Source: Eledone cirrhosa (Eukaryota). From it: DNA of 64,000 nucleotides. Under the pieces are notes generated by a model. That model made no database searches, had not been told where the DNA came from, and saw only the letters and a list, made by a program, of their open reading frames with translations. Each line of letters opens with the position of its first letter. Position 1 is the first letter of the stretch. The DNA lies in assembly GCA_964016885.1 (NCBI GenBank), contig OZ024757.1, forward strand, positions 29,202,001-29,266,000, given 5' to 3'. The position numbers and the translations under genes are program-made. Below are positions 1,547-23,866 of the stretch, one piece after another.

Positions 1547-2019
1547 CATATATTATGTGTGTATATGTGGATGTGTATACGTGCATGTATGTGTGTCTCC
1601 ATGTCTGTAAACGTGTTTATGACCCATAATTTAGTAGTTGTACTAACTATAAAAACAATAACTACTGAGGTCAATATCACCCACTAAATCTCTTCAAAGT
1701 TGTGCCCCAGTTTAATAACTGAAACTAGTAAAAAAAATACGACTAAAAGACTAAACAAATATGACAGTGTGATGTCTCAAGCTGCTAGTAATAGCTGCTA
1801 AACTCCCTTTAAAATTACACTTAATCAACTTTAAACAGGAAGGATCATGGAATCATGTTGGATAATGTAGACTTAGATAAGCGGAAACAGACGGAAGGGT
1901 GACGTCTGGAATGTGGTATGGTCAAAGGTTTGCTTGATTACAGATGATCTGGTGGGAGGAGGGGAGTGGAGGGTAGAGAAATAAAGTCAGTACTGGAACA
2001 CAGGCAACAAAACAAACAA

Positions 2020-2093
2020 ACACCACCACCGCTACAACCATAACAAGAACAACAACAATAACTACTTACTACTGCTACTACTATTGCTGCTGT

Positions 2094-2127
<34 letters not shown>

Positions 2128-2187
2128 GCTGCTGTTACTACTACTATTGCTGTTGCTGCTACTACTACTACCACTATTGCTGCTCTG

Positions 2188-2219
<32 letters not shown>

Positions 2220-2495
2220 GAAATATCTAGGAACAACTACATCTGCATTATAAGCTGCAGTAGCAGCAACAGTAGTAGTAGCAACAACAATAACAACAAC
2301 AACAGTAGTAGTAGTACATGAGGGCGATGATGATGGTGGTGGTGGTGATGATGGTGATGGTGGTGGTGATGTTGATGGTGGTGATGTTGATGGTGATGGT
2401 GCTGATGATGCTGGTGGTGGTGGTGATGGTGGCGATGATGATGGTGGTGATGGTGATGATGATGATGGTGGTGATGATGATGGTGGTGGTGGTGG
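2020..2495. repeat. Mixed trinucleotide low-complexity tract (CAA, CTA, GAT/GGT)
   Basis: Direct reading. Confidence 0.9.
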
Positions 2496-2691
2496 GAGTA
2501 GATAGAACGTTATGGTGAAGAAAAGCGGTAAACAAGATGGCATTTGGCGCACGGTGGTGCTACAACTGTGCATTGTGCACTGCAAACAAAGGCTTGCATT
2601 ACTTGCATGCCTTTAACTGCAGATTTATAAACACACACACACATGCACACACGCATATATATATATATATATAGGAAAGAATCTCTGAATT

Positions 2692-2739
2692 GAGAGATCA
2701 CTGCTCCGATACTATGGACATGTGGTTAGAATGTCTCAG
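2692..2739 (+). mobile_element. Short RTE-LINE fragment
   Basis: GAGATCA..GCTCCGATACTATGG..TTAGAATGTCTCAG matches 35180-35216 of the RTE relic. Confidence 0.55.
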
Positions 2740-3068
2740 TGTGTGTGTGTATGTGAGTGTGTGTGAGTGTGTGTGTGTGCGTGTGTATTTATGTGTGTGT
2801 GTGTATGTGTGTGTGTGTGCGTGTGCGTGTGCGCATGTGTGTGTGTGTGTATTTATGTGTGTGTGTGTGTATGTGTGTGTGTGTGCGTGTGTGTGCGTGT
2901 GCGTGTGCGCATGTGTGTGTGTGTATGTTTGTGTGTGTGTGTGTGAGAATGGGTAAGTGCGTGAGTAAATATTCAGACATAAATATGTGTAAATACATTC
3001 ATATATGTAAAATTTAAAATTTATTGCACGACAATTGGTCCAAAGTTTATGTGAAAGGCTGACGCTAC

Positions 3069-3126
3069 AATCACGCTGAAACACTCATGCACACATACGT
3101 CCATATATGTATGCGTTTGTATATGC

Positions 3127-3161
<35 letters not shown>

Positions 3162-3295
3162 TATACATATATATACACACACACACATATATATATATAC
3201 ATATCATATATACAAATATATATATATATATGCATATGTATACACAAACGCATACATATATGGACGTATGTGTGCATGAGTGTTACAGCGTGATT
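3069..3295. repeat. Inverted repeat (about 52-bp arms) enclosing TA/CA microsatellite; foldback or MITE-like
   Basis: AATCACGCTGAAACACTCATGCACACATACGTCCATATATGTATGCGTTTGT recurs as reverse complement with 1 mismatch, ending at 3295. Confidence 0.8.
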
Positions 3296-3367
3296 ATCTT
3301 TTTTATGTGTATATCTATGTGTTTATTTAATGATCCAAAATAGATACACACACACACACAGACAGAC

Positions 3368-3412
<45 letters not shown>

Positions 3413-3477
3413 TGCCTCAGCATGTCCTCAGGCGGATGGCTGGAACAGGTAAAGAGTAAAAGTGTATCTATGAGTGA

Positions 3478-6895: not shown

Positions 6896-7216
6896 AAAGA
6901 ATAGAGGTGTAACACACAAGTTATTATATATTGGTAAACGGAATAGAATATGCTGACAAATTGTTCACAGTTGAAAAATGGTTTAATTAGGAATAAAAGA
7001 GTATTAGTGATTGTATGGGTTAGTATTCAGTTGTGGTTTTAAGTTTTTAAGTTTTTACCGGTTGCGCATTTCTAAATGCTTTTCAAAAATAATTTTGAGA
7101 TAGAGTGTCCGTGTTGTTTGCTCAGATCAGAGCAAACGACACGGACAGGTGGTGCTATTAAGTTAGACATGGCCTGGGCCAATACTGGCCAAAACATTTC
7201 AAAGTTATTCAAAGTT

Positions 7217-7289
7217 ATATATATATATATATATTTATATATTTATATATATATTTATATATATATATTTATATATATTTATATATATA

Positions 7290-7339
<50 letters not shown>

Positions 7340-7370
7340 TATATATATATTTATATATATATATATATAT

Positions 7371-7420
<50 letters not shown>

Positions 7421-7428
7421 TATATATA

Positions 7429-7515
<87 letters not shown>

Positions 7516-7529
7516 TATATATATATATT

Positions 7530-7565
<36 letters not shown>

Positions 7566-7631
7566 ATTTATATTTATATATATATATATATTTATATATA
7601 TTTATATATATATTTATATATATATATATAT

Positions 7632-7690
<59 letters not shown>

Positions 7691-7735
7691 TTATATATAT
7701 ATATATATTATATATATTTATATATATATATATAT

Positions 7736-7766
<31 letters not shown>

Positions 7767-7789
7767 ATATATATATATTTATATATATT

Positions 7790-7820
<31 letters not shown>

Positions 7821-7898
7821 ATATATATTTATATATATATTTATATATATATATATTTATATATATATTTATATATATATATATATTATATATATATT

Positions 7899-7929
<31 letters not shown>

Positions 7930-7995
7930 ATATATATTTATATATATATTTATATATATATATATTTATATATATATTTATATATATATATATAT

Positions 7996-8026
<31 letters not shown>

Positions 8027-8079
8027 ATATATATATTTATATATATATTTATATATATATATATATTTATATATATATT

Positions 8080-8128
<49 letters not shown>

Positions 8129-8173
8129 ATATTTATGTATATATATATTTATATATATATATATATTTATGTA

Positions 8174-8254
<81 letters not shown>

Positions 8255-8279
8255 GTATATTTATATATATATTTATGTA

Positions 8280-8310
<31 letters not shown>
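7217..8310. repeat. (TA)n microsatellite, about 1.1 kb
   Basis: Direct reading. Confidence 0.95.
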
Positions 8311-8313
<3 letters not shown>

Positions 8314-10096
8314 AATATAGACATAGAATATTCGAAAATATTCTGTATGTTTATAATAAACATTTTGAAGACCTAATCGCTATAGAATAGAATACGTCAC
8401 GTATTACAATTAGATTCTCGATAAAAGCAAGGGAAGTAAATCTACGCGTTTCATTCTCGTTAGAAATCGTCAGGACTACATATCCAGTGCTTTTATCGAG
8501 AATGACACAGCTAGAGACTTATAGAATACTTAGCTGTGTACAGGAACTGGTTTGAAAGAGCGGTTGCCGGTCCGGCAGAAATTAGAAATTGGAATAAATG
8601 CTCTGAAATAGCGATATATATGTGAATATAGACATAGAATATTCGAAAATATTCTGTATGTTTATAATAAACATTTTGAAGACCTAATCGCTATAGAATA
8701 GAATACGTCACGTATTACAATTAGATTCTCGATAAAAGCAAGGGAAGTAAATCTACGCGTTTCATTCTCGTTAGAAATCGTCAGGACTACATATCCAGTG
8801 CTTTTATCGAGAATGACACAGCTAGAGACTTATAGAATACTTAGCTGTGTACAGGAACTGGTTTGAAAGAGCGGTTGCCGGTCCGGCAGAAATTAGAAAT
8901 TGGAATAAATGCTCTGAAATAGCGATATATATGTGAATATAGACATAGAATATTCGAAAATATTCTGTATGTTTATAATAAACATTTTGAAGACCTAATC
9001 GCTATAGAATAGAATACGTCACGTATTACAATTAGATTCTCGATAAAAGCAAGGGAAGTAAATCTACGCGTTTCATTCTCGTTAGAAATCGTCAGGACTA
9101 CATATCCAGTGCTTTTATCGAGAATGACACAGCTAGAGACTTATAGAATACTTAGCTGTGTACAGGAACTGGTTTGAAAGAGCGGTTGCCGGTCCGGCAG
9201 AAATTAGAAATTGGAATAAATGCTCTGAAATAGCGATATATATGTGAATATAGACATAGAATATTCGAAAATATTCTGTATGTTTATAATAAACATTTTG
9301 AAGACCTAATCGCTATAGAATAGAATACGTCACGTATTACAATTAGATTCTCGATAAAAGCAAGGGAAGTAAATCTACGCGTTTCATTCTCGTTAGAAAT
9401 CGTCAGGACTACATATCCAGTGCTTTTATCGAGAATGACACAGCTAGAGACTTATAGAATACTTAGCTGTGTACAGGAACTGGTTTGAAAGAGCGGTTGC
9501 CGGTCCGGCAGAAATTAGAAATTGGAATAAATGCTCTGAAATAGCGATATATATGTGAATATAGACATAGAATATTCGAAAATATTCTGTATGTTTATAA
9601 TAAACATTTTGAAGACCTAATCGCTATAGAATAGAATACGTCACGTATTACAATTAGATTCTCGATAAAAGCAAGGGAAGTAAATCTACGCGTTTCATTC
9701 TCGTTAGAAATCGTCAGGACTACATATCCAGTGCTTTTATCGAGAATGACACAGCTAGAGACTTATAGAATACTTAGCTGTGTACAGGAACTGGTTTGAA
9801 AGAGCGGTTGCCGGTCCGGCAGAAATTAGAAATTGGAATAAATGCTCTGAAATAGCGATATATATGTGAATATAGACATAGAATATTCGAAAATATTCTG
9901 TATGTTTATAATAAACATTTTGAAGACCTAATCGCTATAGAATAGAATACGTCACGTATTACAATTAGATTCTCGATAAAAGCAAGGGAAGTAAATCTAC
10001 GCGTTTCATTCTCGTTAGAAATCGTCAGGACTACATATCCAGTGCTTTTATCGAGAATGACACAGCTAGAGACTTATAGAATACTTAGCTGTGTAC
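8311..10096 (-). mobile_element. 311-bp tandem array (about 5.7 copies), one hammerhead per monomer; non-LTR retrozyme-like
   Basis: Monomers start at 8311, 8622, 8933, 9244, 9555, 9866; minus-strand HHR at 8436-8479, 8747-8790, 9058-9101, 9369-9412, 9680-9723, 9991-10034. Confidence 0.9.
8436..8479 (-). ncRNA. Type I hammerhead ribozyme, first of six array copies
   Basis: GUAGUC-CUGACGA-UUUCUAACGAGAAU-GAAAC-GC-GUA-GAUUUAC; predicted cleavage between 8443 and 8442. Confidence 0.9.
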
Positions 10097-10111
10097 TTAT
10101 AGAATACTTAG

Positions 10112-10330
10112 CTCGATAAAAGCACTGGATATGTAGTCCTGACGATTTCTAACGAGAATGAAACGCGTAGATTTACTTCCCTTGCTTTTATCGAGAATCT
10201 AATTGTAATACGTGACGTATTCTATTCTATAGCGATTAGGTCTTCAAAATGTTTATTATAAACATACAGAATATTTTCGAATATTCTATGTCTATATTCA
10301 CATATATATCGCTATTTCAGAGCATTTATT
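10112..10330 (+). mobile_element. Inverted partial copy of the 311-bp monomer with intact hammerhead (10133-10176)
   Basis: Reverse complement of array sequence; CTGACGA 10139-10145, GAAAC 10160-10164, GTA 10167-10169. Confidence 0.9.
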
Positions 10331-14002
<3,672 letters not shown>

Positions 14003-14566
14003 TGTTTGAAGTTTTGTCTCAGATTTTGCTTATAGACCTAAGAATTTTTAAACCGAGCATGTGGTCATTTTTTTTACACATTATAGATATGTGTCTCATT
14101 CATGAATACTGGTATTTACATTATAGTGCCTAATTCATAAAAATTGATAATTCAAATGGATGAGACATAATTTATTTTTAATATATTTTAAATATATCAT
14201 CTTTCTTTCTTTTTCTCCTATACACTAATCTAACTGTATCCCTTCCCTTAACCTCTCACATATACGATGAGCATCTGTCAAAATGCAGCCTACTATGTTT
14301 TTTTTTTCACCATCAATGTATTTCTCTCTATCCTTGTCTCTCTATCTCGTTCCGTTGTTTTTCTTTACATACATCTCTTTTCTCTTTGCATACATCTCTT
14401 CATCTTCTTTTTTATTTACATACATCTCTTCACCTTCTTCTTCTCATCTTCGTTTTCTTTCTATATAACTATCATAACAGTTTCACTACCAAATCAACTT
14501 TTTTAAAAGGAAGTTGCATTCTCAAAAGGTATGTCACTAATTATTTATAAAACAGCTTATGTATTG

Positions 14567-14632
14567 TATTTTGTCTGAGGAAGGCATAACATATTTTTAA
14601 TATGATATCCCAGAAATATATATAACGAAATA
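14567..14632 (+). ncRNA. Family-C hammerhead (CUGAGGA)
   Basis: UAUUUUGU-CUGAGGA-long stem II-GAAA-UAUAUAUA-ACGAAAUA; element homologous to 45040-45260 and 61000-61210. Confidence 0.75.
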
Positions 14633-14674
14633 AATATGGTTTTATAAATATAGTTTCCATTTGTTTAATATCGT

Positions 14675-15977
<1,303 letters not shown>

Positions 15978-16177
15978 NNNNNNNNNNNNNNNNNNNNNNN
16001 NNNNNNNNNNNNNNNNNNNNNNNNNNNNNNNNNNNNNNNNNNNNNNNNNNNNNNNNNNNNNNNNNNNNNNNNNNNNNNNNNNNNNNNNNNNNNNNNNNNN
16101 NNNNNNNNNNNNNNNNNNNNNNNNNNNNNNNNNNNNNNNNNNNNNNNNNNNNNNNNNNNNNNNNNNNNNNNNNNNNN
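15978..16177. other. Assembly gap (200 N)
   Basis: Run of N. Confidence 1.
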
Positions 16178-22437: not shown

Positions 22438-23356
22438 AATCTCTTTCTCTTAATTTCGAGTATATTTTTTTGACCGGCCACCTTCCTGGTGGCAAGGTTG
22501 TAAAAGAAAAGAAATTGTCATCCCTTGAATCGCAAGAATGTTTTGCAAATTTTGAAGGTGCCAGCTATCGCAGCCATTTGTAGACTATGAATTAGGGAGC
22601 TGCGCTTTTTGTCCGCAAATCCAAGTTCAGTCATACTTTGCTCCAAGCGGGTTGGTATATAACCCGTAGCACCAATAATGATGGGTATGAAGCTAAACGT
22701 GTATCTTGGATACTGGATTTGTAAACTCCTCATCAATGGTCCGTAGATGTCCTTCTCCTGTATTTTTCTGACAACGTTTACATCAAGTGGGCAGCTGATC
22801 TCCACAACAGAACACGTTTTCAATGTGTGGTCCCAAACAACAATATCAGGCCGGTTGTGCTTTAATTTGGTGCCAGTTTTTTATTTTCAGGTTCCACCAG
22901 TATTCCTTAGTGCCATCTATCTCAATATATTCTTCCTCGTTTGTTGTTAATTTTATTTTCCGAAGTGCGTTCCAGTTGGTTCTAGCTATCCCATCGTGTC
23001 TCATGGGGAGGTAGTAGCGAGATGACATTCTTTCGCAGCTGGCAACAATGTGGCTTACATCCTCGATCTTTGTTTTACATAGCCTACATTTATTGTCAGC
23101 TGCTGGCCTTCCTCTTTTGTGCAGCAGATATTTGGTAGTGAGTTCTTGTTCCTGTATTGCATAGAGATATCCCTCAAGGTGTGATGTCATAAACTTGTCG
23201 GAACTCCATACCAGGCTTTTTGAGTGGTTTATCTCCTCTATGGTCTGTGTTTTACGTCTCAAGTATCCATGCACAACTTTTTCTGTAAATTGGTCAATTT
23301 TTTCATCTTGTTTGAACATTGAATAGGATCTTCCGATTTCTCTGGGTGAGAGATTT
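22438..23356 (-). pseudogene. 5'-truncated R4/Dong-clade-like non-LTR retrotransposon (CCHC knuckle plus restriction-like endonuclease)
   Basis: AIQEQELTTKY, CRLCKTKIEDVSHIVASC, RHD, RPDIVVWD..VEISCP, IPIIIGATG motifs; one frameshift near 22880. Confidence 0.85.
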
Positions 23357-23465
23357 ATGTATGTATGTATGTATGTATGTATGTATGTATGTATGTATGT
23401 ATGTATGTATGTATGTATGTATGTATGTATGTATGTATGTATGTATGTATGTATGTATGCATATA

Positions 23466-23866
23466 TGTTTCTCTTTCTTGTAATTTCGAGTACATTTTGA
23501 CCGGACACCTTCCTGGGGGTAAGGTTGTAACAAAAAAGAAATTGTCATCCCTTGAATCGCAAGAATGTTGTACAAATTTTGAAGGTGCCAGCTATCGCAG
23601 CCATTTGTAGCCTATGAATTAGGGATCTGCGCTCTTTTTCCACAAATCCAAGTTGAGTCATATTTTGGTCCAAGCGGACTGGTATATAAACTGTAACTCC
23701 AATAATGATGGGTATGAAGCTGAAGATGGTACTGGAGCTACAAACTCCTCATCAATGGTTTGTAGATGTCCCCCACCCCCTATTGTATTTTTCTTACAAC
23801 GTTGGCATCAAGTTGGCAGCTGATCTCTACAACAGAGCACGTTTTCAATATGTGGTCCCAAACAAA
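23466..23866 (-). mobile_element. Second, shorter and more decayed copy of the same R4/Dong-like element
   Basis: Colinear similarity to 22440-22840. Confidence 0.85.

Follow-up and report, generated by a model that had tools for sequence, protein, structure and literature searches.

How does a tandem array of hammerhead ribozyme repeats come to end in an inverted, truncated copy of itself, with (TA)n sequence on both sides? The question is raised by an insert in a 64,000-nucleotide stretch of the Eledone cirrhosa genome (GenBank assembly GCA_964016885.1, contig OZ024757.1, positions 29,202,001 to 29,266,000), here called the window and numbered from its first letter. The original prediction, made from these letters, held that both ends of a break in (TA)n had primed reverse transcription on circular or concatemeric RNA. 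Comparison of the insert with other copies of its family leads us to favor a two-ended, two-site Penelope-type insertion of a retrozyme into (TA)n, in which one repeating RNA would have been copied from both cut ends; we put the probability of this reading at roughly 80%. A Penelope-like reverse transcriptase (RT)-endonuclease is the likely mobilizer. The class of element is already known, and the circle step, which has been proposed in the literature, is a prediction here.

The insert and its repeat unit

The layout of the locus is (TA)n, antisense array, sense array, (TA)n. A (TA)n-rich target array (7216 to 8302) leads into the left arm (8303 to 10096, minus strand), which has a period of exactly 311 bases and consists of 5.77 identical units with six complete predicted type I hammerheads. 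With the unit numbered from the base 3' of the hammerhead cut site, the 3' end of this arm (8303) lies at position 140, in a zone referred to as site B, and its 5' end (10096) lies at position 213. The 5'-truncated right arm (10112 to 10330, plus strand, 219 bases) runs through unit positions 254 to 311 and then 1 to 161, where it ends in a second zone, site A, so that the insert ends are B140 and A161. As predicted, the right arm is an inverted copy of the array: it is identical at 219 of 219 bases to the reverse complement of 9837 to 10055 and of four earlier units. In each arm the ribozyme-sense 3' end lies on the outer side, against (TA)n, again as originally described, and that of the left arm halts inside the unit's own ATATATAT (8303 to 8310; on the minus strand, the internal AUAUAUAU run of unit positions 133 to 140), where the site B end merges with the target. 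Between the arms, the 17-nt local duplication noted earlier is present (10074 to 10090 and 10097 to 10113); it is part of a longest duplicated piece of 19 bases (10095 to 10113, minus strand), a copy of 10072 to 10090 (unit positions 219 to 237) that overlaps each arm by 2 bases and probably reflects a backward slip or a templated insertion.

Read on the minus strand in the array, and on the plus strand in the inverted arm, each unit carries what looks like a type I hammerhead motif. Its elements are CUGACGA, a stem II of 4 bp, GAAA, a stem III of 2 bp with the palindrome ACGCGU, a cut site at GUA, and a long stem I, the fold of which has a z score of -4.6. The predicted hammerhead of the right arm, with its extended stem I, occupies 10112 to 10195 (plus strand), with CUGACGA at 10139 to 10145, GAAA at 10160 to 10163, and the cut site at 10169/10170. 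Among 103 inserts, no fixed variant falls at a core position; the commonest family variants are at N7, loop II, position 10.1, and stem I, and position 10.1-11.1 is U-U or A-U rather than G-C. A search of Rfam gave no match at the gathering score in the window, and at E values up to 5 it returned only miRNA-hairpin matches at the inverted junction and no hammerhead. According to the accessible text of PMC4209133, a short palindromic helix III is typical of animal hammerheads that work as dimers, and a 2-bp palindromic stem III is weak as a monomer. The insertion is noncoding, with no frame of at least 150 amino acids within the array. Tandem type I hammerhead units (at the level of motif), the lack of long terminal repeats (LTRs), noncoding sequence, and dispersed multicopy occurrence are all retrozyme traits; by motif and layout, the element is filed as a non-LTR retrozyme, with self-cleavage and circles as predicted features. 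It is not an autonomous Penelope element, as it encodes no RT and GIY-YIG endonuclease.

The target array to the right of the insert (10331 to 15977, 5.6 kb, TA-rich) is unusually long and is followed by an assembly gap near 15980 to 16177. Farther along the window, a fragment of a non-LTR retrotransposon open reading frame (ORF) with a Pfam zf-RVT match lies at 22846 to 23544.

Fixed 3' ends at two sites

The repeat family is young and abundant. Exact cut-site pattern matches number 14,929 for the 310-base type and 697 for the 311-base type, which is that of the window (about 15,600 in total); unit matches are spread over many contigs, with the listed cut-site matches on two of them (C1 and C2), and exact ends adjoining (TA)n occur genome-wide 1003 times at site 166 and 1164 times at site 131/140. 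A genome search with an 81-base piece, with frequent words skipped, gave no match. We examined 105 loci, comprising the window, 18 found by similarity, the first 60 matches to the site 166 end pattern, 20 site 131/140 matches without a listed 166 partner, and 6 from the cut-site list; for the 80 loci chosen by one end, that end is fixed by selection and the partner end is free. These loci contain 107 inserts of at least 150 bases, and exclusion of the nine that are cut by an edge or gap left 98 complete inserts. Two shorter inserts were also excluded (L084, with a site B arm and an 11-base site A arm, and L163, which is one-armed). An inverted, 5'-truncated partner in head-to-head orientation was seen in 87 of the 98 complete inserts, the other 11 being apparently one-armed.

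The ends of these 87 inserts follow a nearly strict rule: 83 have one 3' end at site A (157 to 173) and the other at site B (121 to 143), and there are no A/A or B/B pairs. Site A is represented by end 166 in 63 of the 83, and site B by end 131 in 40 and by end 140 in 26, the window included. The A-B distance is mostly 26 to 40 bases, with modal offsets of 35 and 26. In the window, the "tail" between site B and the site A end of the right arm (10310 to 10330, plus strand) is 21 bases long, and the modal end 166 would give 26. The first 16 loci of a list that is independent of the ends comprised 12 with A+B ends, 3 one-armed loci, and 1 cut by a gap. The end pairing and the two-armed inserts support the two-ended insertion into (TA)n that had been predicted, and the combination of a one-sided tail with two start sites is a Penelope signature.

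How the ends are chosen departs from the original prediction, which had them selected by microhomology and circularly permuted. Mapping of 3' endpoints over the copies shows instead two fixed zones, one per arm. The 5' ends are scattered; no more than 5 bases separate 7 of 172 from the cut site, with about 6 expected. The modal ends 166 and 131 share merely 1 to 2 bases with the target, though the 8-base ATATATAT is only 2 to 9 bases from 131, and other ATAT and TATA words in the unit are unused as ends. The location of the ends is therefore set by position in the unit and not by microhomology, which modulates site B alone by shifting it (end 140, 26 of 83). Fixed ends had been thought to speak against a circular template; the 3' ends are indeed fixed, but a circle is not refuted thereby. 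The pure TA tract beside the two arm types has medians of 20 and 25.5 bases (n = 46). Ends at the hammerhead cut site were considered and rejected: the exact pattern for a 3' end there has 0 matches in the genome, and 5' ends show no excess at that position.

Target-site duplications are masked by (TA)n; informative repeats occur at 6 of 52 inserts, compared with 6 of 308 control pairs, and a search for empty sites among the fetched loci gave one unconvincing pair. One insert (L132, 3467 to 6271) lies outside a microsatellite and has an 11- to 15-base target-site duplication, the single clear case.

Central junctions and arm lengths

Inserted bases are present at 30 of 86 central junctions, and 36 of the remaining 56 overlap by at least 2 bases, versus 18% by chance. 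This microhomology, together with the template slips, supports the proposal that the two products were joined by template switching. Short templated fillers resembling that of the window occur at 8 of 49 junctions. Polymerase-theta joining is a host source of templated fillers, and the junction fillers may be RT slips or products of such joining. The lengths of the two arms correlate (Spearman 0.39, p = 2e-4, n = 86).

Both arms might also derive from a single primed cDNA, with the inverted arm made by self-priming or fold-back, as has been proposed for rotifer Penelope elements with palindromic junctions (accessible text of PMC3846280). We consider this improbable. It would account for the head-to-head orientation, for the haplotype that the arms of an insert share (see below), and for a few near-symmetric junctions. 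However, palindromic centers are not in excess (5' positions no more than 10 bases apart in 8 of 86, with 5.8 expected; p = 0.22), the arms show no systematic difference in length (medians 1223 and 1047, neither being consistently longer), 54 minor variants are unmirrored, and the second arm would still have to halt at the other fixed site.

Two loci carry repeated junctions. One insert contains its central junction twice (L049, 4883 to 5060), and L068 has, at a distance of 3 kb, a second and nearly duplicate insert that shares the junction (1 to 407 and 1910 to 3468); the patterns suggest later local duplication.

The window junction in sequencing runs

At least half of the sampled words are present in twenty listed runs, none of which is recorded as RNA. 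No cover was found over the window junction (10098 to 10109) in three repeat-rich read runs (X1, X2, and X3), no sequence from run X7 was placed there, and none came from 1.9 Gb of raw reads of X24. This lack of cover, together with later rearrangement at L049, L068, and L151, is what could be said for a rearrangement of satellite arrays after insertion, by recombinational inversion or break repair, or for an assembly or chimeric-read artifact. We regard either origin as very improbable, given the strict A+B ends, the flanks in direct orientation, and the nonpalindromic centers. Independently assembled contigs from X1 and X3 (library type not on record) moreover contain numerous further left-to-right joints, as well as loose ends in (TA)n at unit positions 140, 168, 171, and 173. 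In the window itself, an interrupted motif is shared by both flanks in direct orientation (4 copies on the left and 6 on the right, with none reversed on either side), a pattern not expected from a fold-back read; the nonpalindromic center, with arm 5' ends at unit positions 213 and 254, and the 86 other two-armed complete inserts likewise argue against such an artifact.

Runs X4 to X20, of 17 other coded organisms, contain 53 to 66% of the words sampled from 9790 to 10332. X17 yielded one 280-base contig at depth 5, and X24, which shares its organism code with X8, yielded none from 1.9 Gb of raw reads. Cross-contamination by a very abundant repeat is a likelier source of the words in foreign runs than horizontal transfer.

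Nature of the RNA template

Read-through of the right arm into ...GCATTTATT had been taken as the sign of a circular or multimeric template. This argument fails: 10309/10310 is unit position 140/141, which marks the stopping point of the left arm and lies inside one RNA unit, not at its boundary, and the 21 bases concerned are the Penelope "tail." Because they lie within one cleavage-defined unit, the informative boundary crossing is that of the predicted cut site 10169/10170, which lies within the right arm and is crossed by it. Across the family, 156 of 166 arms extend through the cut site, and 66 of 83 inserts have two arms each longer than one unit. A template that runs through unit boundaries is supported, with circle and multimer both left standing.

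The 103 inserts fall into 35 haplotypes, and the arms of one insert share a haplotype. Individual arrays are uniform, with 94 minor sites over a total of 275,752 bases (3.4e-4 per base), and 13 of 15 private fixed variants are present in both arms. Jumps between random monomers of the cellular pool would give mosaics, which argues that one molecule served both arms; new variants fixed across whole arrays need a bottleneck of one unit, which a circle would supply. We give about even odds to a monomer circle as the likelier source of the uniform arrays. Minor variants are mostly singletons; 7 of them recur at the corresponding copy of the other arm, and 54 do not. On the ribozyme strand, G>T outnumbers C>A by 11 to 2 (p = 0.003, uncorrected for six comparisons), which hints that some of them arose on one strand; A-to-G editing scars were not seen among the minor variants (A>G, 7; T>C, 16; p = 0.21), and A>G makes up 5 of the 15 private fixed variants. 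Within one arm, linked variant pairs recur irregularly in 6 of 29 copies at L151 (1010 to 9900) and at a 7-unit spacing at L061 (1910 to 8779).

Penelope-like elements and sister repeats

ORFs for RT and GIY-YIG exist elsewhere in the genome. A coding Penelope-like family with a CxxC linker and GIY-YIG (L119 and L133 to L138) carries a tail after an internal TA run; its copies are 90 to 94% identical, with 6798 search candidates. One tailed and one untailed arm were found in 5 of 7 two-armed loci. The sole strong match in the comparison with 27 possible partner loci was a nested sister repeat. Matches of 72% to the hammerhead region at GIY-YIG loci were rejected as weak and as belonging to other small repeats, and the flanks of seven one-armed inserts and of L037 showed no shared partner.

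Three loci with GIY-YIG matches contain open RT frames of 844 to 1096 codons (L101, 3809 to 6622; L102, 4488 to 7019; L103, 3275 to 6562) and are candidate intact Penelope-like elements; no canonical hammerhead core was found upstream of these frames. A diverged sister hammerhead repeat (L070, 2430 to 2900; about 78% alike over positions 60 to 155) forms a small two-armed insert with the same A/B ends within the 3'-terminal TA run of a coding Penelope-like element, and further sister copies occur at L036, L048, L054, and L081. Two hairpins upstream of site B are common to the L070 repeat and the family unit, and a few compensatory changes occur among 7 related sequences; this is weak evidence.

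Discussion

Our results are consistent with a mechanism in which a Penelope-like RT-endonuclease would make a cut in each strand of a (TA)n tract, and the two cut ends would prime reverse transcription of one repeating RNA. A protein dimer may hold one RNA near a conserved hairpin region, with its active sites at A and B. Each cDNA would extend upstream past uncut hammerhead sites over 0.1 to at least 19 units on a template without a reachable 5' end, and the two 5'-truncated products would be joined head to head by a template slip or host end joining. Somewhat more tentatively, at odds a little short of even, we suggest that each insertion records one asymmetric Penelope dimer, with two RTs at fixed sites 26 to 40 bases apart circling one small RNA circle simultaneously from one break. 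If this is true, the tail and the inverted partner are the obligatory product of coupling, and the arrays are genomic fossils of rolling-circle reverse transcription.

Several points weigh against this reading or parts of it. The comparison of 27 of 10,596 GIY-YIG candidate loci found no autonomous element with a homologous pLTR, 11 of the 98 complete inserts are apparently one-armed, and 4 of the 87 two-armed inserts depart from the A+B rule (three with A paired with 81, 119, or 257, and one with 199/229). In the in vitro study of Anolis Poseidon (PMC11167929), start sites were no different between strands, and coupling per event was outside its scope. As regards the circle, "private" means unique among 103 inserts of probably more than 1000 loci, and some of the minor variants may have arisen by later mutation or as assembly errors, in which case the argument from 54 versus 7 would fall. 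At L165 (2609 to 9001), two haplotypes follow each other in identical order in both arms (first two copies of one, then up to 16 of the other), and at L099 one variant is at the same copy in both arms; these two inserts point to in-register reading of a multimer, or to a joint switch of template, rather than to a pure monomer circle. A haplotype switch in one arm alone (L140) and a scattered mosaic (L151) were also found. L165 is the clearest case of two RTs on one multimer in register, and uncut multimers template at least some events.

The template of the same two-ended Penelope-type insertion might, then, normally be a linear, uncut read-through transcript of an array, with circles rare or playing no part and with arrays growing or being homogenized later in DNA. 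This is possible, with the odds against it. Besides the in-register mosaics at L165 and L099, it is favored by the finding that, in vitro, the main substrate was unprocessed RNA and cleavage by the hammerhead was not required (PMC11167929), and by the weakness of a 2-bp palindromic stem III as a monomer (accessible text of PMC4209133). However, 13 private variants fixed in all copies of both arms need a one-unit bottleneck, in-register variants occur in merely 2 inserts versus 54 unshared sites, and the scatter of 5' positions (8 of 86 within 10 bases, with 5.8 expected) reveals no common template end.

The two-ended, two-site reading brings together two questions, the origin of inverted, one-tailed Penelope insertions and the genomic reverse transcription of animal retrozyme circles; in the accessible literature, either step is a proposal and not a demonstration. 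More than 1000 very young copies provide per-event statistics that are beyond the reach of single elements: the two ends almost never share a start site, and both arms come from one template. Exact predictions follow for the existing in vitro system, with a 310-base substrate.

Comparison with known systems

In LINE-1 twin priming, two primers act at one break, and an inverted 5' segment is joined by microhomology. The likeness lies in the two primers per break; the second LINE-1 primer uses variable internal sites by homology, whereas in the present inserts the two start sites are neighbors at fixed positions, and the arms copy one and the same repeating sequence.

Metazoan non-LTR retrozymes have been described by Cervera and de la Peña in 2020 (PMC7229834) and by Li, Clavereau, and Pollet in 2026 (10.64898/2026.07.22.740005), with Penelope mobilization and circular templates as proposals. 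In the accessible text of these studies, they resemble the present element in their noncoding tandem units of about 300 bases, with one type I hammerhead apiece, and in their thousands of dispersed copies. Two-armed head-to-head insertions, fixed start sites, and tails are not described in the main passages of the former, where the word "inverted" has 0 occurrences, or in the accessible text of the latter. As far as that text goes, these studies show circular RNA or test cleavage, whereas the present element is known from DNA alone.

Insertions of Penelope-like elements (PLEs) with an inverted, 5'-truncated partner and a 30- to 40-bp tail at one end are reported in the accessible parts of PMC8557442 and PMC3846280, in agreement with the original prediction that such partners are a PLE mark; multicopy, head-to-tail, nonautonomous Chlamys elements are also mentioned there. 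The head-to-head layout, the tail at one end, and the preference for (TA)n are shared. Unlike those insertions, the present element has no ORF, both of its arms are whole-element multimers, its junctions are nonpalindromic, and its one-tail rule is nearly strict (83 of 87).

A biochemical parallel comes from Frangieh et al. in 2024 (PMC11167929), who found that the Penelope protein of Anolis Poseidon (PAc), a predicted dimer, cuts and extends both strands in vitro, uses uncut RNA, and starts at two internal sites that bound a 30- to 40-nt tail, target homology not being needed. Two internal start sites downstream of a hammerhead that bound a tail, an AT-rich target, and little homology are common to both systems. 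In Poseidon, however, the ORF start of an autonomous element contains both sites, and the main text of that study does not extend to inverted products or to templates that are circular.

A search of titles and abstract openings, with subscription papers and supplements outside its scope, found no description of two-armed retrozyme insertions or of per-event coupling of start sites. Non-LTR retrozymes, their proposed Penelope copying from circles, and the inverted partner and one-sided tail as Penelope marks are already published, as far as the accessible text of these sources goes. The accessible text of PMC7229834, 10.64898/2026.07.22.740005, PMC8557442, PMC3846280, and PMC11167929, supplements aside, contains no description of two-armed retrozyme insertions or of a strict pairing of sites A and B in each event.
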